From: a virus
Taxonomy: Duplodnaviria > Caudoviricetes
IMG/VR virus record: IMGVR_UViG_3300008255_000392
Span: 1 to 27,674 of that record
Length of the DNA: 27,674 bases
Strand: one strand, 5' to 3'
Shown: one piece after another, positions 782-25,308 of the stretch
Position numbering within the stretch: position 1 is the stretch's first letter
Layout of the letters: every line of letters begins with the position of its first letter
The notes under the pieces: generated by a model
What the model was told of the DNA's origin: nothing
The model's database searches: none
What the model saw: only the letters and a program-made list of their open reading frames with translations
Translations under genes and position numbers: made by a program

Positions 782-1653
782 CCAAGGGGATCCAGAAATG
801 GACGACTCCCTCCGGCATCCGGACGATCCGGCTCCACTACAGCGCCTTCCTCAAGCGGGATCCGGACACGGAACAGGGCCGCGCCTGGATGCAGAAGGCC
901 CTCGAAGGGTACGTCGGCGGAGCCGAGAACCCCGCCTGGAAGATGGAGCAGGAGATCGACTTCTCCATCCACTCCGGAGTGCCGATCTACAAGATCTTCC
1001 TCGAAAAGCACCACGTCGCGGCTCTGCCGCTCAAGCCCTTGAAGAACGTACCGATCATCCGGGGGTGGGATTACGGGCTTACTCCGGCCGTGGCACTCGC
1101 CCAACTCACCCCGCGGCCGCACCTGAACATCTTCCCGTCGATCTTCACGCCGCAGACGAACAGCGTGGGCATCAAGCGGTTCACCGAGCGGGTCATCGAA
1201 TACTGCAACGTCACCTATCCCGGCTTCCGGTTTATCGACTATGGGGATCCAGCAGGGGATCAGCGGGCCCAGACGGACGAGAGGACCTGCTTCGATATTC
1301 AGCGGGATTTCAAGGACCCGCAGGGATACCCCCTCGTGCAGGTCGAAGCGGGGGAGATCTCCTGGACCGGCCGGCACAAGGCGATGGAGGATGCCCTCCG
1401 CAGGATCGAGGACGACGGAGTGCCTTTCGTGCAGATCGACCCGCGGGAGCGGTTCCTTATCGGAGCTTTTAAGGGCGGGTACCGGAAGAAGAAGATCGCC
1501 AACAAGGAACTCTACCTGGACGAGCCCGAGAAGAACGAATATTCGCACCTGATGAACGCCCTCGAATACCTCGTCTCCCGGTTGCAGTACGGCCGGCCGA
1601 TGGTGCGGAAGAAGCCCGTCGAGGATAGCGTCGCGATGACCTACTCAGCGTAA
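778..1653 (+). CDS. Terminase large subunit, nuclease half (RNase H-like)
   Basis: WKMEQEIDF linker, IIRGWDYGLTPA (first catalytic Asp), YGDPAG, C-terminal KNEYSHLMNALEY. Own GGAGG RBS and ATGA overlap with the ATPase gene. Confidence 0.85.
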   Translation: MTKGIQKWTTPSGIRTIRLHYSAFLKRDPDTEQGRAWMQKALEGYVGGAENPAWKMEQEIDFSIHSGVPIYKIFLEKHHVAALPLKPLKNVPIIRGWDYGLTPAVALAQLTPRPHLNIFPSIFTPQTNSVGIKRFTERVIEYCNVTYPGFRFIDYGDPAGDQRAQTDERTCFDIQRDFKDPQGYPLVQVEAGEISWTGRHKAMEDALRRIEDDGVPFVQIDPRERFLIGAFKGGYRKKKIANKELYLDEPEKNEYSHLMNALEYLVSRLQYGRPMVRKKPVEDSVAMTYSA

Positions 1654-1663
1654 GGAGGATCGA

Positions 1664-1846
1664 ATGTGGCCCTTTGACGGAAAGAAGATCGAACCGAAGC
1701 CAACCGAGTTGGTGGGTTTCCAACGGATCCCCAAGGACGGCCGCACCAACACGGGATTCGTCAAACCCAAGAACGGGACGATGGGCAACCAGAACATGAA
1801 CAAGATGATGAAACAGATCGAGGACGACGAGAAGGCGCGGAGGTAG
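1664..1846 (+). CDS. Small hypothetical protein (60 aa)
   Basis: AAGGAGG RBS directly after the terminase stop; fills the gap to the next gene; GC-rich third codon positions. Confidence 0.65.
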   Translation: MWPFDGKKIEPKPTELVGFQRIPKDGRTNTGFVKPKNGTMGNQNMNKMMKQIEDDEKARR

Positions 1847-1849
1847 GCC

Positions 1850-2269
1850 ATGACGACCATCATGAAGCCCGCCTACACCACCATGTCAGCGAATATTGCG
1901 GCGACCGGCTTCTCGACCCTGGCATCGGCCGCGATCCACACGAGCAACGCCGTCGATAATTCCGCGAACCTCTACCAGGACTATCTGATCGAGGTGAACG
2001 CGGGCGGGACGGCGGCGGCTACGTCATGGCTCGACGTCCGGGCGGCCATCTGCGAGGACGGAACGAACTATGGTACCTGGGAATCGGCGATTCCGCTCGG
2101 GATCATCAACTTCTCCGTACAGCCCCAGAAGGCGCATTTTTCCCTCTGTGGCCACGGGGGACTGTTCCAAGCGCCTCAAAGGTTCAAGATCATGGTTCAA
2201 AACAACTCCGGTGCGGCCCTTACGTCAGGTACGATCTACTGGCAGGGCATCCAGATTCAGAGCGTGTGA
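1850..2269 (+). CDS. Hypothetical beta-rich virion-associated protein
   Basis: GGAGG RBS; 139 aa, Ala/Thr/Ser-rich with alternating beta-strand pattern; directly precedes the LamG gene. Confidence 0.6.
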   Translation: MTTIMKPAYTTMSANIAATGFSTLASAAIHTSNAVDNSANLYQDYLIEVNAGGTAAATSWLDVRAAICEDGTNYGTWESAIPLGIINFSVQPQKAHFSLCGHGGLFQAPQRFKIMVQNNSGAALTSGTIYWQGIQIQSV

Positions 2270-2270
2270 C

Positions 2271-3098
2271 GTGATCCCTCACGCCCCGGAATCCCACGTT
2301 CGGACGGTACTCCGGATGCACCCGGCAATGGTAGGACATTACCCGTTGCGATCCGGAATCCCCACGGTGGATATTTCTGGAAAAGGGCAAACCGGCACGA
2401 TCACCTTGATGAATCCAAACCGCGGGAAGTATGACCGGGAACCTGGACTCTACGGCGCATGGGACGACACCCATGAGGCGTGGTTCGATTCCAATATCGC
2501 AACGATCCTTCAAGCCTTTACCATGGGAGGGTGGGCTTTCTGTCTTGGTAAAGCAGATGGTTCCAATGAATTATGGAGTAAGCGACAGTATTATTCTTCG
2601 GCGCATGCCGAATTTCCTTTTGCCATTTATCTCGACGCGGCCGCAACTTCCATCAGTTATATGTTGGATTCAGGAAATGATTACACGCCAGATCATCGTA
2701 TTACAACTGCCATCCCAGGTGGGTTAAAAGACCGTTGGTTCTTTTACTGCCTCACAAGGAACGGCAACAATAACATTCTCAACATCAACGGCATCCCTGT
2801 GGTTGTGTCCTCCTGGGCGGGAACTATGGCGGCCGGAAACAAAACGAAATATCGCTTTGGGTCCCCGAATGGAAATGGTCCAGGACAATACACGGCATCC
2901 TTCAATGGATATTTTGGGGAACATTTCATCATGAACGTCGGGATCGACCAGACACAAATAGCCCATATCTACCGTCAAACAAGAAATCGCTACCTAACAA
3001 GGGGCGCCTACATCCTCGATTCAACTCCTGCCGCAGGTGGTGAATCGGCCGTTCCGGTGTTCCAGTCAAACTACTCCCGCAGGAGAAGGGCGGCGTAG
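2271..3098 (+). CDS. LamG / concanavalin A-like lectin domain protein (probable virion accessory)
   Basis: GTG start right after the previous stop. LamG-type motifs FTMGGW, WFFYCLTRNG..ILNING, FNGYFGEHFIMN..IDQTQIAHIY. Confidence 0.75.
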   Translation: MIPHAPESHVRTVLRMHPAMVGHYPLRSGIPTVDISGKGQTGTITLMNPNRGKYDREPGLYGAWDDTHEAWFDSNIATILQAFTMGGWAFCLGKADGSNELWSKRQYYSSAHAEFPFAIYLDAAATSISYMLDSGNDYTPDHRITTAIPGGLKDRWFFYCLTRNGNNNILNINGIPVVVSSWAGTMAAGNKTKYRFGSPNGNGPGQYTASFNGYFGEHFIMNVGIDQTQIAHIYRQTRNRYLTRGAYILDSTPAAGGESAVPVFQSNYSRRRRAA

Positions 3099-3800
3099 AT
3101 GAAATATCTGAAAGCAGGGACGGCCGCGGTCATCCTCATGGGGCCTGCCGTCGACAAGACGGATGGCGTCACGGCAGAGACGGCCCTCACCCCGACCGTC
3201 TACCTCTCGAAAAACGGGGGAGCCCAGGCGGCCCGAAACGACGCGACAGCGATCACCCATGACGCCCGCGGGTACTACCTCGTCACGTTAAATGCCACGG
3301 ACACCAACACGGCCGGCAGGCTTCGGGCCTTGTTCTCGTCGGACGCCGATCATCTTCCCGTCTGGGAGGATTACACCGTCCTGCCTGCCCAGGTCTACGA
3401 CTCGATCATCGCGGGAACGGACAAACTCGACGTCGCCGTGACCGAACAGGCGAATATCGACTTCGGTGCCTTGCAGAAGGCGTCCCTCGACGCCGCAACC
3501 CCCGCCTCGGTGGGATCCGTAACGGCCGGCGTCACCCTCGCGGCCGATGCCTTGGACGCCGCTTCCCTCAAGGCAGACGCGATCGCGGAGATCGTCGCCG
3601 CGGTACTGGCCGCCCAGGTAGAAACCGAAGGCACCTACACCGTCCAACAGGTCCTCTCGATCACCCTGGCGGTCCTGGCCGGCGTGACGGCAAACGGCGG
3701 GGCCTCCCTCAAGACGCCGAACGGCATCGCGGTCCGTGTCGCCGCGACCATCAACACTTCCTCGGAGCGTACAGCGATGACGCTGACGCCGAGCGCGTAG
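3099..3800 (+). CDS. Hypothetical virion structural protein
   Basis: ATG directly after the TAG of the LamG gene. Ala/Thr-rich, with GYYLVTLNATDTNTAG and a C-terminal LAVLAG...RVAATINTSSERTAMTL module resembling phage structural proteins. Confidence 0.6.
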   Translation: MKYLKAGTAAVILMGPAVDKTDGVTAETALTPTVYLSKNGGAQAARNDATAITHDARGYYLVTLNATDTNTAGRLRALFSSDADHLPVWEDYTVLPAQVYDSIIAGTDKLDVAVTEQANIDFGALQKASLDAATPASVGSVTAGVTLAADALDAASLKADAIAEIVAAVLAAQVETEGTYTVQQVLSITLAVLAGVTANGGASLKTPNGIAVRVAATINTSSERTAMTLTPSA

Positions 3801-4278: not shown

Positions 4279-6251
4279 CGAATCAAGAGGTCGTTGACTT
4301 CCTGAACGCCGCTCTCAAGGAATCCGCGGATACCTTCGGCGGCTTCCGGAAGGTCATGACCGAGTGCTACGACCGCTATCGGTCGTTCCGCGACTACTCG
4401 AAGAAGAAGTCCTGGCAACACAAGATCGTCGTTCCGTCCGTCTATCCCGCCATCAAGGGCGCCTCCGGACTTCTGAAACGGATCCTGATGAAAACCCCGG
4501 AATTCTTCGAATTCGTCCCGGAGCGTCAGGACAACGCCCCGCAACAGATGGATCCTGTGACCGGCCAGCCGATCGAGGACCAGATGGACAACTTCGCCCG
4601 GGCCTTCACCCGCAAGGTCCGATTCCACCTGGACGAGGCTGATTTCATCGAGGCATTTGAAGAAGGAGTCGAATCCGCTCTGGCCGTCATGATCGGCGTC
4701 CTCCGGTTCACCCCGCAGAACGTCGAGGACAACAAGGTGATCTGGGGACCGATCCCCGTCATGGATCCCGCAACGGGGAAAGCCGTCCTCGACCCTATCA
4801 CAGGGGAGCCCGTCGCCTCGAAGTTCGATTTCGTGAAGGAGACGACCCAGCGGGCGAAATTGAAATGCACCGTCGTCAACCCGCTCCTGATGCACTTCCC
4901 CCTCGATCGCTCCTGGATCGTCGAGGAAACCCGGGTCCAACTCTATGAACTGCTCGAAAACGCCGAGCAGATCCCCTGGGAGAAGAAGGAACTCAACCGC
5001 CTGAAACGGGAGGATTACGAATCAGCCGCCCGGACCTCGGCCGACATTGAACGCCTCGCCATGCTCAAGATCGCCGAGCCCAAGAACCGCTTTCGGAAGG
5101 AAGTCGTCCTGCACACCTTCTGGGGAACGGTGACGGACCAAAAAGGGAACGTCATCGTCAAGGACGGCCGGTTCATCGTCGCCAATCAGAAGTACCTGCT
5201 CCTGAAACCCTCGCCCTCCCCCTACTGGCTCCGGAAACACCCGTATGTGTTCATCAGCCCGCTGAAAGTCCTGTTCCAATGCATCGGCGCCGGCATGATC
5301 GACGGCATCCGGCCGATCATCAACGCCCTCGACAACCTCATCAACATCGCGGGCGACAAGGCTCTGTTCGCGCTTCTGTCGCCGTCCGAAGTGAACGTCG
5401 ATGCCCTGAAAGACCCGCAACAGGCCGAAGGCGGCTTGACCCCGGGGAAGTTGTTCAAGACCAAGGGACCGCTCGGCCAAGCCCTTCGCCAACTCACGGC
5501 CGCGGATATTCCGCAGGGAACCTTCGTCCTCGCGGATTTCCTGAAAAACAGCGTCCAGAATTATACCGGATGGACGGAATTCATTCAGGGAATGCCGACG
5601 AACAAGGGCAAGGTCACCGCCACGGAAGTCAACCGGAAAACCGAGGCGTCCTCCATGTCCTTCGAGAACATCGCGGCGTCGATCGAGAAGGGCGGCGTCC
5701 TCGAGTCCATCGAAGTCGCCCGGGACTTGACCGTGCAGTATTTCATGGACCCGCTCTTAAATCCAGAAACCATCGACATTTTCAAGCAGGAGGGCCTCGA
5801 CTTAAATGCACTCCCCGAGGCCGAGAAGTACGCTTTTCTGAACAAGCGGTATCCGATCAAGGCGAAGGGGCTGACGGCCTTCTTCGACCAGGAGAAGGAA
5901 CGCCAAGATCTCCTGGGACTGATCGAAGTGTTCTCCAAGGTCCCCGCCCTCGTTCAACACCTGAATATCGAGGAATTCCTCAAGCGGATCCTCCAATCGT
6001 TCGAATGGCAGAACCCCGACTTGCTCATCCTCCGCGGCCCCATGCCTCTCCCGGGCGCCGTGGATCCCGTCACAGGTCAACCGTTGCCGGCCGGCGCGAC
6101 GACGGGTATGCCCCCCGCAGGTATGCCCCCTGCAGGTATGCCCCCCGCAGGGGTGCCCCCCGCAGGGGCGCCCATGCCGCAAGAGGGACCGATGGATCCG
6201 AACGTCGTCATGGAAATGCTCAAGGCCGCAGGAAGCAAATTCAGCCAGTAA
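4275..6251 (+). CDS. Portal protein (P22/podovirus-like)
   Basis: About 658 aa from the ATG at 4275 (GGAGG RBS, ATGA overlap). Lies between terminase and scaffold/capsid. Motifs HPYV..SP...F..IGAGMID.IRP, TATEV, repeated DPxTG loops, Pro/Met-rich C-terminus. Confidence 0.85.
   Translation: MTNQEVVDFLNAALKESADTFGGFRKVMTECYDRYRSFRDYSKKKSWQHKIVVPSVYPAIKGASGLLKRILMKTPEFFEFVPERQDNAPQQMDPVTGQPIEDQMDNFARAFTRKVRFHLDEADFIEAFEEGVESALAVMIGVLRFTPQNVEDNKVIWGPIPVMDPATGKAVLDPITGEPVASKFDFVKETTQRAKLKCTVVNPLLMHFPLDRSWIVEETRVQLYELLENAEQIPWEKKELNRLKREDYESAARTSADIERLAMLKIAEPKNRFRKEVVLHTFWGTVTDQKGNVIVKDGRFIVANQKYLLLKPSPSPYWLRKHPYVFISPLKVLFQCIGAGMIDGIRPIINALDNLINIAGDKALFALLSPSEVNVDALKDPQQAEGGLTPGKLFKTKGPLGQALRQLTAADIPQGTFVLADFLKNSVQNYTGWTEFIQGMPTNKGKVTATEVNRKTEASSMSFENIAASIEKGGVLESIEVARDLTVQYFMDPLLNPETIDIFKQEGLDLNALPEAEKYAFLNKRYPIKAKGLTAFFDQEKERQDLLGLIEVFSKVPALVQHLNIEEFLKRILQSFEWQNPDLLILRGPMPLPGAVDPVTGQPLPAGATTGMPPAGMPPAGMPPAGVPPAGAPMPQEGPMDPNVVMEMLKAAGSKFSQ
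6105..6164 (+). repeat. 15-bp tandem repeat GG(TA/GG)TGCCCCC(C/T)GCA x4
   Basis: Directly visible; encodes G(M/V)PPA in the portal C-terminus; the last unit is identical to the 4169 unit. Confidence 0.9.
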
Positions 6252-6263
6252 GGGGGGAAGGGA

Positions 6264-6563
6264 ATGGATCAGATCGAAAGGGAGTTGGCGTTGCAGTTCC
6301 GGATCCAGAGGGGACAAGCGGTAAAGGATTTGCTCGCGTCTTCCGCCTGGACGGAGCACATCTCGAAGTACCTCACCGTTCAGAAGAAGTTGGCAATCAC
6401 CAAGTCCTACCAGGTTCTCGGGAGCGAAGCGGAAGTCGCGTTCTGCCTCGGCGGCCACGCCGCGCTCGAGGCCTTCGAGGACGCCCTGAAAACCACCGTA
6501 CAAGACATCGACCTCACGTTGGACGACCTGCCGGAGGATTCCTCTCCGGACATTACGCAGTAG
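6264..6563 (+). CDS. Small helical protein between portal and scaffold
   Basis: Purine-rich RBS, 99 aa, acidic C-terminus; slot often filled by a small protein in podovirus head modules. Confidence 0.7.
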   Translation: MDQIERELALQFRIQRGQAVKDLLASSAWTEHISKYLTVQKKLAITKSYQVLGSEAEVAFCLGGHAALEAFEDALKTTVQDIDLTLDDLPEDSSPDITQ

Positions 6564-6579
6564 GGAGGACAGAGGACAA

Positions 6580-7596
6580 ATGTTCAAAAACCTTCTACTC
6601 ACCCTGGCCGAGCCCGGGTCAGAAGGTGGCTCCGGGGGGGGTGGCACTCCCACGGAATCAGGACCTCCACCGTTGCCGTCTGCTTCCGCTCGGGAACGCA
6701 TCTATGAACACGCCGATGCGTCCCCGAATTCCGGAACCGATGGCACAGAAGCCCCACCCGCGGCCCCCGAGGCCACGCCCAAGCCCCCGGCAGGACTGCC
6801 GTCCACAGGACTGCCGTCCACAGGACTGCCGTCCGCAGGACTGCCGTCCGCAGGACTGCCGTCCGCAGGACTGCCATCCGCAGGACCGGATTCGGCGAAG
6901 GCGAAGGACTCGGATTCGGCTCCGGCGAAGGGTGAAGGAACACTGGACCCCGTTGCGGAGAAGCGGGTGAAGGACGCACAGGCGGCTTTCACGAAAGGCC
7001 AACAGGACCTTGCGGCCGAACGGAAGGCGCGCAAGGAAGCGGAGGCCAAAATCGCCAAGGTGTCGAAGTACGTCGATATGGAAAAACTCGACGCCCACGA
7101 CGCCGAGGAATTGGACAAGGAACTGGATCAGCCGGTAACGAAGCGGGACCTCGAAGCCCTCAAGGCCGCCTCGCCTCCTACGGAAGATGCCCCCTCGGCA
7201 TCCACGTTGGATTCCGAAACCCGGCAGAAGTTCCTCGACGATTACTACACGAAGAACGCCCACGTCAAGCCGTATGCGGATTCAGGAGAGGCATACGGGG
7301 TGTTCCTCAAGGCGGCCGAACGCCTGGGTCCGGAGATCGCGGGCCTGTCCGAACTCGATCAACTCGCAAAGATCGGTGAGGCCGTTTCGAGTTACTTCCG
7401 GACTAAGGACGCGGAACGGGAGAAAGCGATTGCGGAACGGCTGAACACCAAGCGGTCCAACATCAGCGTCGGCGGGGGCCTGGATTCAGCGGGCGCCCCG
7501 GGAACCGGGGAAGCCGAGGACGTGGGCGACGATCCGGCCGCGGAAGTCGCGCACCGGAAAGCCGCGCAAAGCCGCGCCCTCCGGCCGACCCTCTAA
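6580..7596 (+). CDS. Capsid scaffolding protein (putative)
   Basis: Immediately upstream of the capsid gene; acidic, low-complexity N-terminus; coiled-coil KRVKDAQAAFTKGQQDLAAERK; basic C-terminal end. Confidence 0.7.
   Translation: MFKNLLLTLAEPGSEGGSGGGGTPTESGPPPLPSASARERIYEHADASPNSGTDGTEAPPAAPEATPKPPAGLPSTGLPSTGLPSAGLPSAGLPSAGLPSAGPDSAKAKDSDSAPAKGEGTLDPVAEKRVKDAQAAFTKGQQDLAAERKARKEAEAKIAKVSKYVDMEKLDAHDAEELDKELDQPVTKRDLEALKAASPPTEDAPSASTLDSETRQKFLDDYYTKNAHVKPYADSGEAYGVFLKAAERLGPEIAGLSELDQLAKIGEAVSSYFRTKDAEREKAIAERLNTKRSNISVGGGLDSAGAPGTGEAEDVGDDPAAEVAHRKAAQSRALRPTL
6793..6882 (+). repeat. 15-bp tandem repeat GGACTGCC(G/A)TCC(A/G)CA x6
   Basis: Directly visible; encodes GLPS(T/A) in the scaffold. 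Confidence 0.95.
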
Positions 7597-10113: not shown

Positions 10114-10654
10114 TGAATACTACCTCGAAACGTACCGGAAACTGGCCCAGGCACCCCTCTCCGACCTGCTCATGCGATGCCGGTGGGGGCTCGTCCGTCG
10201 CCATCTCAATGGACACAAGACCCTGCTCGACTACGGCACAGGAACGGGCGCGTTCCTCGAAAACGCCATGCGTCCTGGGGATCTCTCCGTGAAGGGATAC
10301 GACGTCAATCCCGCGTCCCCGTTCAGCCGCGTCATGATCGACCACCTTCGCCCGGACGTCCTGACGATGTTCGATGTGGTGGAACACCTGACGGATCCCA
10401 AGGGAGTGATCGAGAAGATCCACCCCCGCCTCCTGACGATCTCGACGCCGAACGTCGATTTCGTCGACACAAAGAACCTCCCCACCTGGCGCCATTTCAA
10501 GCCGGGGGAACATCTGCACTACTTCGGCCAGAAGGCCCTCACGGCCCTGATGCGGTCGACCGGGTTCGCCGTCGAGGAAATGTCCTTCACGGAAGCCGCG
10601 AAGCGCAATCCCGACCGGCCCTTCGACATCATTACGATGGTGGGCGCCCGATGA
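10028..10654 (+). CDS. Class I SAM-dependent methyltransferase with N-terminal CxxC
   Basis: ATG at 10028 after GGGAG; CPNC; motif I LLDYGTGTG; DVLTMFDVVEHLTDP; STPN; PGEHLHYF. This pattern is typical of glycan-locus methyltransferases. Confidence 0.85.
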   Translation: MENFAPNLFECPNCSLISADYPALPELYDEYYLETYRKLAQAPLSDLLMRCRWGLVRRHLNGHKTLLDYGTGTGAFLENAMRPGDLSVKGYDVNPASPFSRVMIDHLRPDVLTMFDVVEHLTDPKGVIEKIHPRLLTISTPNVDFVDTKNLPTWRHFKPGEHLHYFGQKALTALMRSTGFAVEEMSFTEAAKRNPDRPFDIITMVGAR

Positions 10655-12279
10655 CCTGGGACATCAACGCGCCGTACATCCCGGAAGTGGAGAAGTGCCG
10701 GCACCGGCTTCTGCAATACTGCGAGGGCCAGGGACTCGATCTGGGGTGCGGGTCGAAGAAGATCAAAGATACGGCGATCGGGTGCGACCTGGGGAAGGGC
10801 CCGAATTCGGCCGCCGACTTTTCGATCGACCTCGAGGGGGGCTTGACCCTGTTCGCCTCGGATACGTTCGATTTCGTGTTCTCGTCTCACTACCTCGAAC
10901 ATACGAAGAACCCCGTCACCGTACTCCGGGAGTGGTTCCGGGTGATCCGTCCGGGCGGGAACCTCGTCCTCTACCTCCCCCACAGGGACCTGTACCCCAG
11001 GATGGGGCAGAAGGGGTCCAACCCGGACCATAAAAACGACTTCGAGCCCGGAGACATTCTCCGGATCATGGACGAGATCGGCTCCTACAAGGTCCTGGTC
11101 AACGAGATCCACGGGGAGGCCGACGAATACTCCTTTGAACTGGTGTTCAACAAGGTTTCCTCCCTCCCGGGGATCACGGCCGCCATTCCGAAGGTCCTCC
11201 CCGCGCCCGGGCAGAAAACCGCGTGTGTTGTCCGGTACGGGGGGATCGGAGACGTCATCTTCGCAACGCCCGTCCTCCGGCGCCTGAAAGAGGAAGGGTA
11301 TCACGTCACCGTCAATACCTCGGAGAACGGCCGGGAGATGTTCAAGGGCAATCCGAACATCGACCAGATGATCTTCCAGGGGATAAACGAAGTGGCCAAC
11401 GCCGACCTCGAGGCGTATTGGGCGAAACTGGCGACTCGGTTCGACCGCTTCATCAACCTCTCCGGGACTTGCGAGAAGGCCCTCTTGCAGATCAAGGGGG
11501 AAGGGTCCGACTACGACCTCTCCGACGACGAGCGGCGGGCGAAGTACGGGAACATCAACTACACCGACTATGCCCTGAAAATTGCCGGATTCGATGACCG
11601 GGGGTTGAATGGGGAGATCTTCCTCACGGAGGAAGAAGAACTCTCGGCGTCCGTGTTCCGGACGGCCCTTACCGGCCGATTCGTAGTGATCTGGGCTCTG
11701 GGGGGCTCGGGACCGCACAAGCGGTTTCCGTTCTATGCAATAGCGATGGCCGCCTTCGCGCGACAGCATCCGGAAGTGCTGTTCATCACCGTGGGAGGGC
11801 AACCGGAGAAACTGCTCGAACTGGCCGCCGACGACGATCCGAATTACCTCCACAAGTCCGGACGGTGGACGATCCGCAACGTCGCCGCGGCGGTGAAGTA
11901 CGCGGATCTGGTGGTGGGTCCGGAAACCGGGGTCCTCAACATGGCGGGGTGCTTCGATACCCCGAAGATCTGTATGCTCACGCACTCGTCCTGGGCGAAC
12001 CTCTGCAAGTATTGGAAGAACGACTACTCCATCCAGTCCAAGCAACGCTGTTCCCCGTGCCACAAGATGATCTACCAGAAAAACGACTGTCCGAAGGACG
12101 AGCACTTCAAGGTGTGCGCTTGCGCCACGCAGTTCGACCCGTCCGATCTCTTACCCAAGATGAAGGAGGTATTCCGAAAATGGAGGCGCACAAATTCAAC
12201 CCTGATCGCCCTTCCGGGATTGGCGTCGATGGGAACCAACGATGGATCACCCAAGGCCCGTGGAAGTTTGATCCATTAA
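10651..12279 (+). CDS. Methyltransferase-GT9 glycosyltransferase fusion
   Basis: ATGA overlap at 10651. N-domain GLDLGCG, FDFVFSSHYLEH, WFRVIRPGG. C-domain VVRYGGIGDVIFATPVLRRLK, ADLVVGPETGVLN, CSPC..C..C. Confidence 0.85.
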   Translation: MTWDINAPYIPEVEKCRHRLLQYCEGQGLDLGCGSKKIKDTAIGCDLGKGPNSAADFSIDLEGGLTLFASDTFDFVFSSHYLEHTKNPVTVLREWFRVIRPGGNLVLYLPHRDLYPRMGQKGSNPDHKNDFEPGDILRIMDEIGSYKVLVNEIHGEADEYSFELVFNKVSSLPGITAAIPKVLPAPGQKTACVVRYGGIGDVIFATPVLRRLKEEGYHVTVNTSENGREMFKGNPNIDQMIFQGINEVANADLEAYWAKLATRFDRFINLSGTCEKALLQIKGEGSDYDLSDDERRAKYGNINYTDYALKIAGFDDRGLNGEIFLTEEEELSASVFRTALTGRFVVIWALGGSGPHKRFPFYAIAMAAFARQHPEVLFITVGGQPEKLLELAADDDPNYLHKSGRWTIRNVAAAVKYADLVVGPETGVLNMAGCFDTPKICMLTHSSWANLCKYWKNDYSIQSKQRCSPCHKMIYQKNDCPKDEHFKVCACATQFDPSDLLPKMKEVFRKWRRTNSTLIALPGLASMGTNDGSPKARGSLIH

Positions 12280-16691: not shown

Positions 16692-17311
16692 GGCCCCCAC
16701 GTCTCATACCGAACTCCCCGGACCTGATGGCGCAGTTGCAGACGCATTTAGACCTGATCTGGAACGAACTCGAGGCGCAAAAAGGGGTAGGCGGGAAAAC
16801 GATCCGGCTCCTGGGGCCGATCGACATGAAGGGGTTGCCGATTCAGAACACGACCCCATCCGTGCCGACGAAACACTCCGGAGCCCACCAGAACGGGGGA
16901 AACGACGAACTGACGGTGACGGGCCTCTCCGGACTCCTGGGAGACGACCAGACGCCGTTTCTCATGGCGGCCGATCAACGGGGCGGGGCGAAACTCGGGG
17001 ATGTGTTCGCTCTCGTCTCCGAAGTCCTGACGCTCTCCCTCCATTCGACGATGGGGATTCAGAAGGTGGACGGGGTGTACCTGGCCCTGAAACAGCAAAC
17101 GCCCGTGGCGCCGATCGCGTCTCCGGACGCCTCCGACATAGGAACGGTCGTTACCCTGGCGAACGAACTGAAAGTGAAATTCGACGAATTGCTCGTAAAA
17201 TTGAAACTCGCGGAGATCATGCCGTGGTACGAGGGGTATTTCCACCAGTATTACTTCCATTCGGATTATTGGGCCGCGGCCCCGTCCGGATACTTCCGGC
17301 AGGTGGTGTGA
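16688..17311 (+). CDS. Short fibre/needle-like virion protein with aromatic C-terminal peptide
   Basis: ATGA overlap; HxxxHxxGGxDxL motif; heptad LANELKVKFDELLVKLK resembling head-fibre C-termini; then PWYEGYFHQYYFHSDYW. Confidence 0.55.
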   Translation: MRPPRLIPNSPDLMAQLQTHLDLIWNELEAQKGVGGKTIRLLGPIDMKGLPIQNTTPSVPTKHSGAHQNGGNDELTVTGLSGLLGDDQTPFLMAADQRGGAKLGDVFALVSEVLTLSLHSTMGIQKVDGVYLALKQQTPVAPIASPDASDIGTVVTLANELKVKFDELLVKLKLAEIMPWYEGYFHQYYFHSDYWAAAPSGYFRQVV

Positions 17312-18354
17312 TGCTGAACACTCTCTCCCTCTGCCCGACCTGTTACAAGAAGATCCCCGCAGAGATCCATTTCACGAACGGCGCGGTGATGGTGAAGGAG
17401 TGCGACGTCCATGGGCAGACGGTCGCCCTCTGCGAACGGGATGCGGAGCATTTCTCGAACTTCTACGAATACGGGACCCTGGGGAACTCGAACACGATCA
17501 TCATCCACGTTCACAACCAATGCAACATGACGTGTCCCTGGTGCTATTACCCGATGGGCGTGGAAAAGATGCACGACTTCCCCTGGTACGACGTCCTCCT
17601 GCGTCAGTACAAGGGGAATTTCCGGCTCCTGCTCTCCGGTGGGGAGCCCACGATCCGGCCGGATTATTTCTCGTTCAATGAACGAGCCGCCGAGGCCGGA
17701 TGGAACACGGGCTCGATCACGAATATGCTCAAACTGGCCGACGACGACTTCTTCAAGAGGACCTCCGAAAGCCCCCTCTACGTCCAGGACGGGACCTATA
17801 AATTCGCCATGTCGATGCAACACCCAAAGAACTATTCCCCGGAGATCGCGGTTCAGAAGATGAAAGCCCTGGCCAACATCCGGGCGGCGGGCTTGAAGGC
17901 GATGTGCATCATGTTCTCGATCCAGTCCTTGGACGAACTCCGGTGGATCCGGGAATTCTACGAGGGAACCAAGGAGTGCTACTCCATGCTCCGGATCCGG
18001 ACCATGTTCAAGAACTGGAACAACAAGGGGGATCGGTCCAACCTGTTCCTCTCCGACCTCCACCGGTCTTTCATGCGGATCTTCGAAGACCTGACGCCGT
18101 TGCAATCCCGGGAGATCGAACACTCGAACGCCTACTGCCTCTACATGAAGATGTCCGATGGCATGAACGTGTCGCTCTCCTGCGCACCCACGGTGGAAAA
18201 CGTCGATTACCACCTGACGTCGCGGCCGGTGTTCATGCTTGCGATGGACGGAAGGTGCTACCCCGTGCCTCTGGCCCAGATCATCAACGAGGGGATCTCG
18301 AAAGGTTGGAAAGACGGATACAGGATCGAAGGAGGAACGCCATGTACTTCGTGA
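17311..18354 (+). CDS. Radical SAM protein with N-terminal CxxC...CxxHG domain (COG1964/MJ0619-like architecture)
   Basis: ATG overlaps the upstream TGA; TLSLCPTC...KECDVHG; CNMTCPWC (CxxxCxxC); LSGGEPT; ITN. Confidence 0.85.
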   Translation: MLNTLSLCPTCYKKIPAEIHFTNGAVMVKECDVHGQTVALCERDAEHFSNFYEYGTLGNSNTIIIHVHNQCNMTCPWCYYPMGVEKMHDFPWYDVLLRQYKGNFRLLLSGGEPTIRPDYFSFNERAAEAGWNTGSITNMLKLADDDFFKRTSESPLYVQDGTYKFAMSMQHPKNYSPEIAVQKMKALANIRAAGLKAMCIMFSIQSLDELRWIREFYEGTKECYSMLRIRTMFKNWNNKGDRSNLFLSDLHRSFMRIFEDLTPLQSREIEHSNAYCLYMKMSDGMNVSLSCAPTVENVDYHLTSRPVFMLAMDGRCYPVPLAQIINEGISKGWKDGYRIEGGTPCTS

Positions 18355-18855: not shown

Positions 18856-20322
18856 ATGGCCGGATTCCAACCGTTCGAGACGATGCCGGATATGTCGAAG
18901 TTCCTATTCGCGGGACTCGATCAGGCGCGGAAGGACCGGGAAAAGCGGGAGAAGTCCAAGGCGATGAAGGACCTCTTTTCCTCCGTCTCCACCCTGTTCA
19001 AGGACGAAATCCCCAACTGGAATCCGTCCTCCGCGCAAGATCTCACGCCTCTCGCGGAACCCGCACCGGCCGGGATCCCCTCCGGCGCGCCGTCTCCTAT
19101 CCCCGCGGCTTCGCCGTCCGCAGGACCGCCAATGCCCGCCGCCGGGGCACCCGCTCCAAGCGGCTTCCCTCCCGTGTTGGGGATGCCTCCGCTCTCCCCG
19201 GAGCAGATCGCAAAGGCGAAGGAATCGTTCGCCAAGATGTCTCCGGAAGACCAGGCGAAGGCGATGGAGGCGGGGAAACAGGCGATGGGAGTCCCTTCGG
19301 GACCGACTCCACCCGCCGCGGGACCTTCGCCGGGGATGTTGAACCTCCAACCGCCGCCTCCGGCAGGGCTCATGTCGCCGGTAGGGCCGGCGATGCCCCC
19401 GGGGATGCCCCTTGGCGCCCCCGGACAGGATCCGAACGCCTTGCGGGCGGGGATCATGAACTCCCTCGCGCAGACCTCCGGGGATTACGCCCCCGAGGCG
19501 GTAGCCGCCATCCATTCGCTGTTCTCGGTGAGCCCCTTCAAGGACACGGAAGGAAGGGACGTATACTCGGCCGCCCCGGGCTCCGTCGTCATGGACAAAA
19601 AAGGCAGGACCCTTTTCAAGGTCCCCGAGAAGGCCGACGAGGCAGGGATCAAGAAGGCCGAGATCGGTGCCGGCGCGACGGTGAAGGCGGCCAAGATCGG
19701 CGCCGGGAGCCGGGAAGCCGCCGCGAAGATCCGAGGGAAGTGGCAGTACAAGAGCGCCGTCGCCCGGGCGAACGCCGCGCGGACCGTGGCAAAGATCCGT
19801 CTCACGGCGGGGGATCGGATCAATTCCCCCGCGAAACTCTACACCTACCTGTCGCAGAAGTTCCTCGACGGCACCCTGCAACCGGCCGAGAAGGAGATCC
19901 TCAACCACCTGGAACCCGTCATCATCAAGATGGGCGGGCTCCAGACCCTGCTCGATATGCAATCCGGAGTCTCGTCGAATCCCCCGCCCTGGGGCGGGAA
20001 CGAACCGGCCGAGACGCCGGATCCGGAAGTACAGCAGGAAGTGGGGTGGTGGGGATCCCTGTTCAACGGCGCCCCGGGCACGACGACTCCCGTCGTTCCT
20101 GCTCCGATCGCCAAGAAAACCCCCGGAAAGGCTGCGCCGGCCAAGGCACCGGCAGTAGGCCCGGGATTCTCGATCGGCGGGCAGAAACTTACCGCTCCCA
20201 CGGGCTATTCAGACGCCGATATTCAGATGACGATGGATTCCATGCAAGCGAAACTCAAGGAGGGGTACTCCAAGGATCAACTGTTCGAGCATTTGAGAAA
20301 AAAAGGTTGGAAAGTGCAGTAG
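18856..20322 (+). CDS. Probable internal virion/ejection protein (Pro-rich)
   Basis: AAGGAGG RBS; Pro/Ala/Met low-complexity segments; middle position in the ejection trio. Confidence 0.55.
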   Translation: MAGFQPFETMPDMSKFLFAGLDQARKDREKREKSKAMKDLFSSVSTLFKDEIPNWNPSSAQDLTPLAEPAPAGIPSGAPSPIPAASPSAGPPMPAAGAPAPSGFPPVLGMPPLSPEQIAKAKESFAKMSPEDQAKAMEAGKQAMGVPSGPTPPAAGPSPGMLNLQPPPPAGLMSPVGPAMPPGMPLGAPGQDPNALRAGIMNSLAQTSGDYAPEAVAAIHSLFSVSPFKDTEGRDVYSAAPGSVVMDKKGRTLFKVPEKADEAGIKKAEIGAGATVKAAKIGAGSREAAAKIRGKWQYKSAVARANAARTVAKIRLTAGDRINSPAKLYTYLSQKFLDGTLQPAEKEILNHLEPVIIKMGGLQTLLDMQSGVSSNPPPWGGNEPAETPDPEVQQEVGWWGSLFNGAPGTTTPVVPAPIAKKTPGKAAPAKAPAVGPGFSIGGQKLTAPTGYSDADIQMTMDSMQAKLKEGYSKDQLFEHLRKKGWKVQ

Positions 20323-20325
20323 GTC

Positions 20326-23300
20326 ATGGATCCCTTCGCTGACTTGGCCCCACCCGTCCGCGCCGCTGATCCGTTCGCGGATCTCGGACCGCCGAGGAAG
20401 GCTACCGATCCCTTTGTGGATCTGGAGCCGTTACCTCCCGTTCCGGAACCGGACGCCTTCGGCATGGTGCCGGTAGAACACCCGTTGGATCTCGCCCTCG
20501 GAGCCGGCGCGTCGTCCGTCGATCTCTCCAAGGGAATCGTCCAATCCCTCGCGGGTGGACTCGGAGCGGCGGGGGCAATCCCCTCGGCGATCTATAACAA
20601 GCAGCCGGAGATCATTCCGCAGACGTTCGAGAAGATCTCCAGCGCTTTCCCGATGGAGCCTGTCTGGAACGCGATCCTGCCGGAACAGGCCAATGTCTAC
20701 CGGAAGGGAATCAACATTCCGGTATCCGAACTGGCAACCTTCCCCCAAGCGTCTGAGAATCTCGGGGACATCATCCTCGAAAAGACCGGCTCCCCCACAA
20801 TAGCGGCGGCGGCGGCTACTTTACTGCAAGCGCTTCCCATCGGTGTGATGAGCAAAACCGGAGCGGAACTGCTCAAAAAGGGCGGGAAGGCGGCCGTAGA
20901 GTCGGTTGTCTCCGATATCCCCCAGGAAACCCTCTACAAGACGGGCCAAAAGACCACCTACACCCGGGCCGACCTCCAAAAGATCCTCACCCAGGACCCA
21001 ACCGCGGATCCAGTCCTGTACGAGCGGGTCACCACGGATCCCGCCTTCAAGCAAACCCTCGTCGACGCCCTGCGCAAGGGGGATCTCTCCGTCGAGGAAC
21101 TGCACCCGAACTGGCTCGGGAAGATCCTCGGCAAGGAGCCGATCACAACCGAGACTCCGACCGAAACACCCCCGCCCGCAAGCCCCAAGGGGGCCCTGCC
21201 GGCCGAGGGGGAAACCGGCGTCACTCCCGCCCCTACGGGTCCTGATCTCATGCCAGGAGGGCAGGGAGGCGTTGCAGAGCCCCTTCCCGGTACGATCTTG
21301 GAGACAAAGACGCAGATGGACGCCGCGAACGCCGTCGCTACGAAGGCGATGTGGGAGCGGCAGGGATTCGATGCAACGATCGAGGGAGATCCGTCCGGAC
21401 TCGGGCATATCGTCACCCGCAGGGTAAAAAAAGGGTACGAAGCCCCGACCGCGCCGGATCCCTTCGCCGATCTGGCCCCCGTTTCGACTCCCGAGGGAAC
21501 CCAAGCGCCTTCGGTCGAGAGAGCGCCCACGCCGCAAGCGGTGGGAACACCGTGGACCGTCCCTTCCCCCGGTCCCGCGGCGGGGCCAGAACCTTTCACC
21601 GAACGTCGAGTAGCCCAGACGTCGGGTCCCCGGGAGCGGCGCGAAGATCTCGCCACCCGGAAGAAGATCGACGAAATGACGCCCGAGGAACAATCGGCCG
21701 CCCTCCGGTATGACGAGAAAACGGGGCTCAAGTCCCATCGGGCCTTCCTCGAGGAAGCCGACACGAAGCCGGTCAAGGTTGCCTTCGACATGAACGGCCT
21801 CAAATGGATCAACGACAATCTCGGCCATGCCGTTGGAGACGATGCTATCCGCGCGGTAGCAGACGCCATCCACGCGGCGCACGGAGACGGGTACAGGATC
21901 TCCGGAGACGAACTGGCGATTCTTGCCGACCACCCCGCGGCGGCCAAGGGAGCGATCGCAAAGATCCGGGACATTCTGAAAGAGACGGAGATCATCGCAA
22001 CACGGCCGGATGGTACGGAGGCGCGGTTCAAAGGCCTCACGATCACGCGGGGAATTGGAGGAACGATAGATGAAGCGTTTACCACCCTCAACGCAGATAA
22101 GGAAGCCGCCATCGGGCGGGGGGACCGCTCCAAAGAGCGCGGAGGACGCCCTCTTGGACTTCTTGAAGTCGCAACCGGGGGGAACGAAGTTCCGGTTCAA
22201 ACTCCCGGACCTCATGCACAACTTCCCACCCGTCCCGAAGGGGATCAGGAGGTAGCCCATGATAAAGAAAACGTCCCAGGGGTACCAAGTAACCTCCCGA
22301 AAGGGGAAACCCCTGTCAAAACCGAACCTGTCACCGGAGGCGGCGAAGGCGCGCCTCGCCCAGGTGGAGATGTTCAAGCACATGAAGGAGCAACACCCGC
22401 TCAAGGAGAGACAACTGAAGCGAAAACGGTTGGAGGAAAGGCTCCGGAAGGGATAGCCCCCGCCGTCACTTGGAAGAAAGCCGCGATCGTTCCCACCCGG
22501 GAAGGCGTGAAGGCCGTTCCGATCGAAGAAAAGCCCGAGCCCCCCGAGGGCGGGACGAAACTGTACGCCTCGCCCCTCGATCCGGAACTGATCGCTCAGG
22601 CGTGGCAATCCCTGAAGCATTCCACGGCTGAATTGAAGGAGCGGCACCGTCTCGCCAAGAGTGCGAAGGGTCTGGATCTCAACTGGTTCAACAAGAAGGT
22701 GAACACCCCGTACTACGTTTTCACCGAGAAATTCCCCCGGTATCGCGGAGTGTTTGACCGGATGCGTCAGATGATGCAGGAGCGGGACGACATCGCCGCG
22801 TCTCTCGCGGAGGACGCGATATCGTTTTTCTCCGGGCTCGAATTCAAGGAGAAGGATGCCGTCAATAAACTGCTCATCAAGGGACGGTATCAGCGGAAGG
22901 TCTGGACGCGGGACGAACTGGTGGAGGAAGGGAAACTCTCCACGAAGCAGATCGACGCCTATCTCGGAATTCGGGCGATGCTCGACCGAGCCCTCGACAT
23001 TTACGAGGACGGCATCATGTACCGGATCACCAAGGGGAAGATGCAAGCGTCCTCGAACCTCTCCGTTCCCCTCATCAAAGATTCCCTGGTCGGTCTGGGA
23101 TTCGATGACGATCGGATCGAGCAGATCGCCGCCCTGATCGGGAGCATCAGGGAGACGAAGCGCAAGGGGTACGCGCCGTTCGCCCGGTTCGGGAACTTCT
23201 CCTACGGCTACGTCCACGTCAAGGAGGACGGCACTCCGGACTGGCAGAATCCCTCCAACTACTTCGCCAAGGAGGAAACCGCGTGGAAGGCGGCCGAGAA

Positions 23301-25308
23301 GTACCAGGTCCTTCTCAAGCGGTTCCACAAGGGGATCTCCGAGGGGCGTCTGATCCCGGTCCCGCCGAAGGAATTGAAGCAGACCGAGGAAGCAAAACTC
23401 TTGCAGGAGATTGGCGGGTTTGAACTCGACGTCATCAAGAAAATCATGGCCCTCGACCCGGAGGCGGCCGCGTCCCTGAAAGAAACCGTGGAGCAGTTCT
23501 TCCAGGCGCAGGGGTTCCGTAGGCATTTCTTTGAGTCCAAGGACTCCCCGGGCTTCTCCACCGACATGGAGCGGGCCCTCGCGGATTACATCGTCTCCCT
23601 GTCCGGGTTCGTCTCGAGGATCAAGGGGATCCCGGAGATGGACAACGCCGCCGCGGGGATGGAGCGGATCCCGGACCTGGCACGGTACTACCGGGAGTGG
23701 AAGAACTATTCGATCTCGCCCCAGGAGGAATTCCATCAACTCCGGGCCGGCCTGTTCCTCTACTTCCTCGGGGGGAACGTCAAGAGCGCCGCGATCAACC
23801 TGACGCAGACGTTCGTGACGACGATCCCCTGGCTCACGCAGTACGTCTCCCCGTTCCGTGCGACGGAGGAAGTCACCCGGGCCGTGAAGGACTTAACCAC
23901 CGCGATGGGCAAACGGGAGGATGGGACCTTCGGTGTGGTGGTCGACAAACTGCCGAAGGATATTCGGGAGATCGTCCGGAGGGGGTACGACGAGGGGATC
24001 GTCTCCGAGCAACTGATCTACGACCTCATGGGGACCGTTCGCAAGCCGTCCTCGATCCGGAAACTCTCCAAGCAGAAGCAGAGGGCCGTCCGGGGATTCG
24101 GATACCTGTTCTCCCTCGCGGAGAAGTCGAACCGGCTGATATCTTTGATAGCGGCGGCCCGGATCCACCAGTCCCTCTCCCAGAAACACGCGGCGAAGAT
24201 GACGGCGTTCGACGCGGGCGGCGGCGGGAAGGAGCCGCCGAAGCCCCCCGGGGGCGGCGGGGCCATACCCTTCGAGGAAGATCCTTTCGAATTCGGGAAG
24301 CGGGCGACGGACGAGACGCAATTCATCTACGCGAAGTACAACCGGCCGGCGATGTTCCGCGGGTGGGGATCCCTGCTCGGGACCTTCCGGACGTTCGTCA
24401 TCAACTTCCTCGAATTCCTCGCCCGGTTGTGGAATCGGGACTCGCTCCGGGCCGTGGGCTCCGTGTTCGTCATGCTCTGGGCCTTCTCCGGGATCCTGGG
24501 GATGCCCTTCGCGGAGAACGTGAAGTACATCCTCGAGGAGGTCGCGGGGATGATCACCCACAAGAAACCCGACCTCGAGACGGCCGTCCGGGAGTGGGGC
24601 TACGAGAATATGGGCGGCCCGGAATTCATGGATTACCTGCTCCACGGACCGTTCCGTCAGGCGACGGGGTTCGATATATCGGCCTCCGTGGGCGTGGGAG
24701 ACGTCCTTCCGTTCTTCGATCGGTATTTCGCTCGGTCCCCCATCGAGACGGTGATCGGGGCTCCCGCCGAAGTCCTCTTAAATCGCCCCGCGCGCGCCTA
24801 CGGATTCTTGAAGGAGGGGCGCCCGTACCGCGCGGCCGAGACGGTAGCGCCGGAATTCCTCCGGAATCCGATGTACGCCGGCAGGATCCTCAAGGAAGGC
24901 GTCCTGGACCGTTCCGGGGGGCAGATCGTCGCCAAGAAGGCCGTCTCCGGTGCCGACGTGGCGAAGAAGGCCCTCGGATTCATACCGACGCAGATCGCCA
25001 AGGCATACGAGCGGGAGAGAGCAAAAGCCCGCATTGGGGAGCGGTCGGAGCAGTTGAAGAAGGACGCGACCCGAGCCCTGCTCAATGCGATCCGGATCGG
25101 GGATCGGCAGAAGGCCGTCTCCATCCTGAAATCGACGGGGCCCAAGCCGGGAGTCCCGCCCGAGGAATGGATCATCCTCAACGAACAGGCGATCGAGAAA
25201 TCGCTTGAGAATACGCTCCTCCCCCCGGAACTCCGGGGGCTACTGCGACAGCCGAATCTGCAACGACCGGCGTTCCTGCGAATGAATAAAGTTTACGGAG
25301 GGAAATGA
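20326..25308 (+). CDS. Large polyvalent ejection protein with GGDEF and PLxRFG-like domains
   Basis: 1660 aa; N-terminal DPFADL repeats; GGDEF-like domain; GYAPFARFG (PLxRFG-type motif, about 23167); helical C-terminal region LGGNVKSAAINLTQ / ETQFIYAKYNRP. Confidence 0.75.
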   Translation: MDPFADLAPPVRAADPFADLGPPRKATDPFVDLEPLPPVPEPDAFGMVPVEHPLDLALGAGASSVDLSKGIVQSLAGGLGAAGAIPSAIYNKQPEIIPQTFEKISSAFPMEPVWNAILPEQANVYRKGINIPVSELATFPQASENLGDIILEKTGSPTIAAAAATLLQALPIGVMSKTGAELLKKGGKAAVESVVSDIPQETLYKTGQKTTYTRADLQKILTQDPTADPVLYERVTTDPAFKQTLVDALRKGDLSVEELHPNWLGKILGKEPITTETPTETPPPASPKGALPAEGETGVTPAPTGPDLMPGGQGGVAEPLPGTILETKTQMDAANAVATKAMWERQGFDATIEGDPSGLGHIVTRRVKKGYEAPTAPDPFADLAPVSTPEGTQAPSVERAPTPQAVGTPWTVPSPGPAAGPEPFTERRVAQTSGPRERREDLATRKKIDEMTPEEQSAALRYDEKTGLKSHRAFLEEADTKPVKVAFDMNGLKWINDNLGHAVGDDAIRAVADAIHAAHGDGYRISGDELAILADHPAAAKGAIAKIRDILKETEIIATRPDGTEARFKGLTITRGIGGTIDEAFTTLNADKEAAIGRGDRSKERGGRPLGLLEVATGGNEVPVQTPGPHAQLPTRPEGDQEVAHDKENVPGVPSNLPKGETPVKTEPVTGGGEGAPRPGGDVQAHEGATPAQGETTEAKTVGGKAPEGIAPAVTWKKAAIVPTREGVKAVPIEEKPEPPEGGTKLYASPLDPELIAQAWQSLKHSTAELKERHRLAKSAKGLDLNWFNKKVNTPYYVFTEKFPRYRGVFDRMRQMMQERDDIAASLAEDAISFFSGLEFKEKDAVNKLLIKGRYQRKVWTRDELVEEGKLSTKQIDAYLGIRAMLDRALDIYEDGIMYRITKGKMQASSNLSVPLIKDSLVGLGFDDDRIEQIAALIGSIRETKRKGYAPFARFGNFSYGYVHVKEDGTPDWQNPSNYFAKEETAWKAAEKYQVLLKRFHKGISEGRLIPVPPKELKQTEEAKLLQEIGGFELDVIKKIMALDPEAAASLKETVEQFFQAQGFRRHFFESKDSPGFSTDMERALADYIVSLSGFVSRIKGIPEMDNAAAGMERIPDLARYYREWKNYSISPQEEFHQLRAGLFLYFLGGNVKSAAINLTQTFVTTIPWLTQYVSPFRATEEVTRAVKDLTTAMGKREDGTFGVVVDKLPKDIREIVRRGYDEGIVSEQLIYDLMGTVRKPSSIRKLSKQKQRAVRGFGYLFSLAEKSNRLISLIAAARIHQSLSQKHAAKMTAFDAGGGGKEPPKPPGGGGAIPFEEDPFEFGKRATDETQFIYAKYNRPAMFRGWGSLLGTFRTFVINFLEFLARLWNRDSLRAVGSVFVMLWAFSGILGMPFAENVKYILEEVAGMITHKKPDLETAVREWGYENMGGPEFMDYLLHGPFRQATGFDISASVGVGDVLPFFDRYFARSPIETVIGAPAEVLLNRPARAYGFLKEGRPYRAAETVAPEFLRNPMYAGRILKEGVLDRSGGQIVAKKAVSGADVAKKALGFIPTQIAKAYERERAKARIGERSEQLKKDATRALLNAIRIGDRQKAVSILKSTGPKPGVPPEEWIILNEQAIEKSLENTLLPPELRGLLRQPNLQRPAFLRMNKVYGGK
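21712..22107 (+). other. GGDEF (diguanylate cyclase-like) domain inside the large protein
   Basis: DEKTGLKSHRAF...FDMNGLKWINDNLGHAVGDDAI...YRISGDEL...TITRGIG...AFTTLNADK matches the DxLTGLxNRR / DxDxFKxxNDxxGHxxGD / RxGGDEF / SxG / AK layout. Confidence 0.85.
22070..22255 (+). CDS. Nested overprinted small protein 1 (61 aa, +1 frame)
   Basis: GGAGG RBS upstream; third-position GC bias moves to this frame over its 3' half; begins in the last helix of the GGDEF domain. Confidence 0.55.
   Translation: MKRLPPSTQIRKPPSGGGTAPKSAEDALLDFLKSQPGGTKFRFKLPDLMHNFPPVPKGIRR
22259..22456 (+). CDS. Nested overprinted small basic protein 2 (65 aa, +1 frame)
   Basis: AGGAGGT RBS 5 nt before the ATG; MIKKTSQGYQVTSRKGKPL..AAKARLAQVEMFKH looks like a folded small phage protein; phage-typical codons occur in this frame rather than the host frame. 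Confidence 0.7.
   Translation: MIKKTSQGYQVTSRKGKPLSKPNLSPEAAKARLAQVEMFKHMKEQHPLKERQLKRKRLEERLRKG

Follow-up and report, generated by a model that had tools for sequence, protein, structure and literature searches.

Genes that lie wholly inside another gene on the same strand, in a shifted frame and with a start of their own, are represented by the Rz/Rz1 spanins of Lambda and by E in D and B in A of phiX174. Rz1 is a partner of the product of its host gene, and in Rz/Rz1 as well as in phiX174 the site is fixed and each of the two frames encodes folded parts with a function. A further out-of-frame gene in a phage gene, the ShiLan-domain hidden HNH endonuclease, was described on computational evidence only (Arsenault et al. 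2025; PMC11855218). In the catalogue of polyvalent phage proteins by Iyer et al. (2017; PMC5512222), GGDEF is an uncommon domain; the main text of that paper does not contain the terms 'overlap', 'linker' or 'TnpV' and describes no out-of-frame nested genes. Peptides of PB1-like phages act on the cyclase YfiN (PMC8085984). A description of genes nested in polyvalent or virion proteins was not found in the literature covered, which leaves aside most subscription journals.

Here we analyzed a 27,674-nt stretch of viral DNA (IMG/VR record IMGVR_UViG_3300008255_000392; hereafter the window), in which a 1660-codon gene encloses two small ORFs in the +1 frame, ORF1 and ORF2. The closest known cases of nesting are Rz/Rz1 and the ShiLan HNH gene. 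As in Rz/Rz1, the embedded genes are on the same strand with their own starts, and the role proposed below for ORF1 would likewise be that of a partner. In contrast to Rz/Rz1 and phiX174, most of the outer frame at our locus drifts as a linker, and ORF2 is found in many places with dissimilar flanks. The ShiLan HNH gene, as described (PMC11855218), is also a whole gene out of frame in a phage gene, with an outer frame that stays open as a tolerated loop. However, it encodes a homing nuclease and has no Shine-Dalgarno (SD) sequence, whereas the present case has SD sequences, no nuclease motif and a location in linkers of virion polyvalent proteins. In fact, neither ORF1 (61 aa) nor ORF2 (65 aa) matched an HNH or other nuclease family in Pfam, PHROG or NCBIfam. 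The outer protein resembles those catalogued in PMC5512222 as a giant multi-domain protein with GGDEF in a virion context. The resemblance to the PB1-like peptides is by description only, as small phage peptides binding a diguanylate cyclase; according to the account in PMC8085984 the enzyme targeted there belongs to the host, and no nesting of the genes is involved.

Two +1-frame ORFs inside a giant gene

ORF1 and ORF2 are complete from start to stop and wholly enclosed by the open frame 20326-25308 (Table 1). A first-pass annotation made from the sequence had assigned a strong SD sequence to each of them, and the coordinates as well as the GGAGG and AGGAGGT motifs were confirmed. An in-frame TAG immediately precedes the ATG of ORF1. 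Among the differences listed for a relative from run X20, both bases flanking the GGAGG of ORF1 are changed and the motif itself is not. AGG, the codon that contributes to the SD sequence of ORF2, accounts for 22 of 230 arginine codons across 12 window genes.

The first-pass annotation had also noted that the phage's usual G/C-ending codons appear in the +1 frame, and this was borne out by measurement. Over 128 codons the main frame had a GC3 of 0.44 and the +1 frame one of 0.78, identical to the average of the window genes (0.78). The difference of +0.34 exceeded that of all 1799 segments of the same length elsewhere (maximum +0.10, mean -0.21, standard deviation 0.10), in a scan that uses a corrected gene start near 10177, where the mis-set start had scored +0.46.

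Table 1. Features of the nested locus. SD ranks refer to anti-SD pairing energy over the 360 ATGs of the window.
Feature	Position	Strand	Basis
Outer gene, 1660 codons, polyvalent virion (probably ejection) protein	20326..25308	+	Flanked by structural genes and endolysin/holin genes
GGDEF domain, SGDEL variant, phage subfamily ending R..RG..P	21655..22158	+	Pfam PF00990 E 4e-9; alignment A7
SD sequence of ORF1, GGAGG	22057..22061	+	8 nt before ATG 22070; rank 28/360
Outer-frame reading across both nested genes: GGDEF helix tail, then acidic G/E/P/T linker, net charge -8	22069..22455	+	Translation and composition
ORF1, 61 aa, +1 frame, basic N-terminal tail over last GGDEF helix, then conserved motif	22070..22255	+	Sequence, homologue alignment
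Conserved ORF1 core, aa 24-46: L..FL.SLP.G.K-hydrophobic strand-LP	22139..22207	+	Alignment A6
SD sequence of ORF2, AGGAGGT	22247..22253	+	Formed by final codons AGG AGG and stop TAG of ORF1; rank 10/360
ORF2, 65 aa, +1 frame, basic hairpin-plus-helix domain of about 43-44 aa and lineage-specific helical tail	22259..22456	+	Homologues, model
C-terminal module, shared with L082 at 85%	22528..25308	+	N-half of L082 is a different (methylase/SNF2) module

The outer gene and its GGDEF domain

The window represents the structural module of an uncultured phage, with terminase, SU10-type portal, major head protein, adaptor, the 1660-aa gene, endolysin and holin. Metagenome runs carrying this DNA are mostly from groundwater and a single year, perhaps from one campaign, and none of those listed is an RNA run. 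The outer protein matches GGDEF at aa 462-558, phrog_11358 at aa 857-1597 (E 5e-60) and the DarB-like phrog_10089, and its C-terminal part resembles DarB-like and other giant virion proteins. Its size, several domains, location in a portal-terminase virion module and swapped domains assign it to the polyvalent proteins. The gene is a mosaic in which aa 388-634 are similar to loci L083 and L091 and aa 735-1660 to L082 (85%), with ORF2 in between. L082, the closest C-terminal homologue, has neither GGDEF nor ORF1 nor ORF2, in line with the expectation that homologues without the enzyme domain would also be devoid of the nested genes. It carries a nested +1 ORF of its own (L082:290-523; 77 aa, purine-rich SD, TnpV-like with a Pfam E of 3e-4, under the cut-off) before a methylase/SNF2 helicase.

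Misassembly does not account for the open outer frame, because one contig of run X3 covers 20300-23418 intact, with four substitutions and one 3-nt gap, and the X20 relative has a 6-nt deletion inside ORF1 that keeps both frames. A broken outer ORF, which had been considered beforehand, can thus be dismissed. The 6-nt loss fits the 59-aa ORF1 homologue P0044. A second contig of run X3 matches only 22343-22387 of ORF2 and then diverges; it probably represents another family member. No promoter or terminator on the + strand was found within 21300-22800.

Several other features of the window were recorded. The N-terminus of the giant protein (20326-20430) has DPFADL-like repeats, which recur ahead of GGDEF (21460-21480) and are possibly a targeting or cleavage signal. 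A 972-aa antisense ORF is located at 20821-23739, and a 563-aa ORF (5279-6970) sits in the low-GC3 frame of the portal. Past the portal region, a 338-aa gene (6580-7596) contains five-residue repeats of the GLPS/GLTT type. The structural module also harbors a methyltransferase-glycosyltransferase fusion (10651-12279) and a radical SAM gene with an HMPTM zinc ribbon (17224-18354), which suggests virion protein modification. A 700-aa ORF at 10177-12279 was rejected as over-called, as position 10654 is the end of a methyltransferase-like gene read in a different frame and the methyltransferase/GT9 gene has its start at 10651.

Alignment A7 of the GGDEF subfamily matched 47 solved GGDEF chains (best E 5.5e-14). 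The metal- and guanine-binding residues D..K..ND..H..GD and the xGDE motif are present, the latter as the SGDEL variant; the catalytic and binding roles of these residues are presumably those known from PleD. The TIGR00254 score of the domain was 33.4 bits, under the cut-off of 37.4. An RxxD I-site upstream of the GGDEF motif was absent from alignment A7. By its residues, the domain is a candidate diguanylate cyclase with catalytic residues and without an I-site.

ORF2 copies are nested in many giant genes

ORF2 has 40 homologues at 63-83% identity, mostly across aa 1-43, and its profile matched 1472 cluster representatives at E≤0.001; related phages are non-independent observations, which applies to all homologue counts given here. 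Viral contigs yielded 228 confirmed matches, of which the best 80 were analyzed. In 61 of these 80 loci ORF2 occupied the +1 frame of a long ORF (300 aa or more, usually 1000-3300); two copies lay in a short ORF, and 17 were free. The same best 80 collapsed into 54 non-redundant clusters (39 nested, 1 short and 14 free). Among six loci from genome contigs, a long ORF enclosed one nested copy and a short open frame another.

Over 41 codons of 40 nested clusters including our own copy, identity was 74% in the inner and 40% in the outer frame, with pN/pS values of 0.30 and 2.09, respectively; this first set was picked by the inner peptide, so that inner conservation is inflated. Synonymous recoding predicted 4.8 stops in the outer frame over nested ORF2, of which none was observed, whereas free copies contain 4.1 other-frame stops compared to 4.3 predicted. 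As outer-frame peptides over ORF2 were too variable to seed a search, the outer upstream flanks were used as queries, which corrects the selection bias only partly since they were drawn from nested loci. All 17 loci obtained through the flank alone retained an intact ORF2, eight of them with new sequence. In the larger flank-recruited group pN/pS was 0.044/0.365 (about 0.12) in the inner and 0.141/0.037 (above 3) in the outer frame. An outer frame open across the ORF2 core is expected by chance in about one of four cases (0.26) in this GC-rich phage. The proposals that the nested frame is under selection within an outer frame that remains open, and that homologues keep the +1 frame free of stops, are both upheld for ORF2 by these data, and ORF2 is almost certainly a real nested gene.

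Nested ORF2 copies start with ATG in 38 and with GTG in 2 of 40 cases. The 20 nt ahead of the start in 39 relatives are A-rich (11.0 vs 7.1 A), weakly folded and mostly devoid of an SD sequence; unlike most of these relatives, the ORF2 of this phage uses one. A-rich, weakly folded starts without SD are typical of Bacteroidota. An A at position -3 was not enriched before nested starts (16/39).

The regions surrounding ORF2 fell into 23 upstream and 30 downstream groups, and the outer protein of this phage is unrelated to the others by BLAST, which indicates that ORF2 moves between positions. Recognised polyvalent domains (LPD38, ART-PolyVal, DarA_C, ddrB-ParB and GNAT) were present in 5 of 21 outer proteins scanned. 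Nested copies cluster in the ORF2 tree, our own among them (4 changes vs 12.6 when shuffled), with support too weak to count origins. The GGDEF profile matched none of the 39 other outer proteins, some of which are cut by the 6-kb flanks, and the ORF2 profile found no match in any other GGDEF locus fetched. On these grounds ORF2 appears not to be a GGDEF partner, and because it is absent from the other GGDEF loci fetched, this lineage is the only one in which the tandem pair was seen.

Further observations concern ORF2-bearing genes. A 395-aa protein (P0069) fuses a polyvalent N-half to the ORF2 frame, by sequence error or slippage. Two candidate nested +1 families were noticed in ORF2-bearing giant genes, one at L016:6331, L040:6238 and L054:5455 (inner 0.45 vs outer 0.14) and one at L016:9154 and L081:8695 (inner 0.49 vs outer 0.41).

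Fold and genomic context of ORF2

The model of ORF2 (pLDDT 92) consists of a hairpin, a short strand and a helix, with a net charge of about +8. No clear match to a solved structure was obtained (best Z 4.9 in the PDB), and no family in Pfam, PHROG or NCBIfam covers ORF2. Among predicted viral structures in BFVD, matches were weak (best E 0.015) and comprised prohead protease, XkdF and cytidyltransferase-like fusions. The likeness to small alpha-beta domains of the DUF2188/YegP type is weak, as are all fold matches (sub-threshold Pfam DUF2188 in three fusion proteins, E 0.006-0.04; 3bid, E 3; 6q2z, Z 3.5). The prohead protease of Salmonella phage ZK22 also aligned with ORF2 through its N-terminal 45 aa (hhalign 93%, 42% identity), which likens ORF2 to the N-terminal domain of such proteases (DUF2213/Peptidase S78_2/XkdF); in cultured phages a distant ORF2 copy is found at the start of the prohead protease.

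Seven of the 14 free clusters (L017, L032, L034, L043, L060, L075 and L077) lie either ahead of a terminase gene, at a distance of up to about 2.5 kb, or in the interval from terminase to portal, and about half of the free copies have other neighbours such as glycosyltransferase and aminotransferase. In L039 an N-terminally fused ORF2 homologue lies between the portal and scaffold genes. Aeromonas phage 1233 (OR359403.1, L170:3001-3132) contains an unannotated free homologue downstream of an 812-aa gene. Judged by this context, there is about an even chance that ORF2 is a mobile accessory of head morphogenesis or DNA packaging, and its product might be a small DNA-binding or prohead-targeting protein.

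ORF1 accompanies the GGDEF subfamily

For the ORF1 survey, loci were recruited by the GGDEF domain alone (best 80 of 144 metagenome matches), with the addition of L085, which was found by ORF1. Of 84 GGDEF-match loci, 46 stop short of the subfamily C-terminus and were excluded. Thirty-three clusters reach the GGDEF end; 26 long and five short ones were counted, and L116 (frameshifted) and L154 (ordinary GGDEF) were left out. The ORF1 motif was present in 20 of the 26 clusters with at least 120 aa after GGDEF and in none of the five in which GGDEF ends the protein. Four members (L096, L105, L113 and L114) match the motif weakly and were assigned by eye, and L086-L088 were dropped as false matches. 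The active sites of the six long carriers without ORF1 look intact. The ORF1 profile matched GGDEF loci only, and L085, recruited through ORF1 alone, has GGDEF as well. No ORF1 was found away from GGDEF in searches that include gene-called databases, which would miss nested copies. By this distribution ORF1 appears to be a dedicated, not an obligatory, companion of this GGDEF subfamily.

The layout of an enzyme with cognate partners envisaged in the first-pass annotation thus fits ORF1, which travels with GGDEF, and does not fit the unlinked ORF2; free-standing homologues were found for ORF2 and, in the databases searched, not for ORF1. The placement right after the GGDEF domain needs correction for ORF1, whose first ~21 codons overlap the last helix of the domain. 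Within this overlap pN exceeds pS in the inner frame of the three closest copies and selection is on the outer frame, whereas codons 24-46 are governed by the inner peptide. For this core, pN/pS was 0.18/0.46 in the inner and 0.25/0.24 in the outer frame of the window, L083 and L091. Over the motif of 18 distant members, identity was 25% inner vs 19% outer, with some rows mis-anchored. Both nested frames show purifying selection, that on the ORF1 core being weaker than that on ORF2.

An ATG is located 26-34 codons ahead of the outer proline in all 20 motif-bearing clusters. It usually derives from outer Tyr/His-Gly codons, and the ATG-making codon is T-ending at 19 of 23 sites (10.3 expected; p 2e-4). 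Where the usual site is lost, an ATG occurs at a nearby Asp, Asn or Tyr codon instead. A start that is kept and relocates favours initiation over frameshifting, and ORF1 is very likely a real nested gene. Sequence searches of Pfam, PHROGs, NCBIfam and the PDB gave no family name for either ORF. The Atlas model was poor (pLDDT 0.46), with no convincing Atlas match (scores <0.9). In what we take to be a likeness, the motif resembles the GD box of AbrB/MazE proteins, for which Pfam gave no support.

In L100 (2452-2991), L101 (5413-6100) and L103, an ORF1-like gene is followed by one or two more nested +1 ORFs. By eye, the ORF after ORF1 looks like the nested ORF of L082, and up to three nested genes are arranged in tandem behind GGDEF. 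With ORF2 in the window and these other nested ORFs in L082, L100, L101 and L103, the slot accepts varied passengers. In L116 the frame shifts at the ORF1 junction, by sequence error or slippage.

Discussion

The DNA of ORF1 and ORF2 very probably makes three proteins, and the homologue comparisons show that both nested proteins, and an outer frame free of stops, are maintained by selection. We assign a probability of about 0.6 to the combined explanation, roles of ORF1 and ORF2 included, that the late mRNA of the giant virion gene would also be translated from two internal ribosome binding sites in the +1 frame. Two small basic proteins would be produced, and the outer frame would read through as an acidic spacer. 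Translation of ORF2 would be coupled to the stop of ORF1. The amphipathic helix and the strand of ORF1 might bind to the cyclase, itself devoid of an I-site, and hold back its activity during synthesis and packaging of the giant protein; cyclase activity would then appear only after ejection into the next cell. Inhibition by ORF1 is tentatively proposed. ORF2, presumably unrelated to the cyclase, occurs on its own, fused to a prohead protease or nested in a polyvalent gene. Nesting would be tolerated since the frame one base earlier over a Lys-rich small gene reads as a linker rich in G, E, Q, V, A, T and P once its stops are removed synonymously.

A G/E/P-rich outer sequence lifts G/C at the first codon position, which is the third position of the +1 frame. 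The nested ORFs could on this account be chance shadows of linker composition, or else decaying untranslated remnants of captured genes. Such an origin is extremely unlikely, as free-standing and fused homologues have stops in the other frame, inner pN/pS is about 0.12 among close relatives, starts are kept, the fold of ORF2 is confident and the deletion in the X20 relative preserves the frame. The +1 peptides might instead be alternative C-termini generated by ribosomal frameshift or transcriptional slippage (GGDEF-ORF1 core, or N-half-ORF2). Near RG..P it is indeed the inner frame that takes over as the conserved one, and there are two fused cases, P0069 (a polyvalent N-half followed by the ORF2 frame) and L116 (with a frame shift at the ORF1 junction), but both may be sequence errors. 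Moreover, the start codon is retained in 20/20 ORF1 and 40/40 nested ORF2 clusters and relocates when its site changes, a stop just upstream closes the +1 frame, and inspection by eye revealed no common slippery run at the junction. We consider frameshifting unlikely.

The first-pass annotation had favoured a single cassette, in which the GGDEF effector and two cognate partners were inserted together. The tandem coupled layout, the absence of all three parts from L082 and the close relatives known for both ORFs (P0044 and P0004) are consistent with this proposal. It does not agree with the 39 other ORF2-nesting proteins, none of which matches GGDEF within the 6-kb flanks, nor with the ORF2 profile, which matches no other GGDEF locus among those fetched, nor with L100, L101 and L103, which have a different nested ORF in the slot after ORF1. 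For ORF2 the cassette is largely refuted by these comparisons, and joint insertion of all three parts is very unlikely; ORF1 and ORF2 appear to be separate modules that arrived separately. Acceptance of real nested genes still leaves the role of ORF1 to be weighed. Linkage alone cannot give the sign of an effect, six long GGDEF carriers manage without ORF1, and it has no family, solved relative or convincing Atlas match. ORF1 may thus act as an activator, assist in folding or packaging, or be a co-inherited neighbour with another target, a real possibility on the doubtful side of even. Against it stand the strict position of ORF1 and its absence away from GGDEF across proteins only 31-41% identical, and a cyclase without I-site might profit from another brake.

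Translation from internal sites, our preferred explanation, has consequences for the annotation of phage genomes. Gene callers retain the giant ORF and discard nested ones, so that protein families are undercounted; most of the best viral ORF2 matches are hidden by nesting. Acidic linkers of polyvalent proteins that seem devoid of meaning can reflect another gene. Tentatively, such linkers may constitute a second coding layer, a slot for swapped small late genes in the +1 frame. In this phage two genes would share the slot, one for a peptide that restrains a cyclase delivered with the virion, the other a mobile gene of head assembly that in uncultured phages would mostly be nested and hence unannotated. 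Provided that ORF1 does inhibit the cyclase, it would represent a natural GGDEF inhibitor of very small size and would explain how an unregulated signalling enzyme can be made for delivery without disturbing the producer cell.
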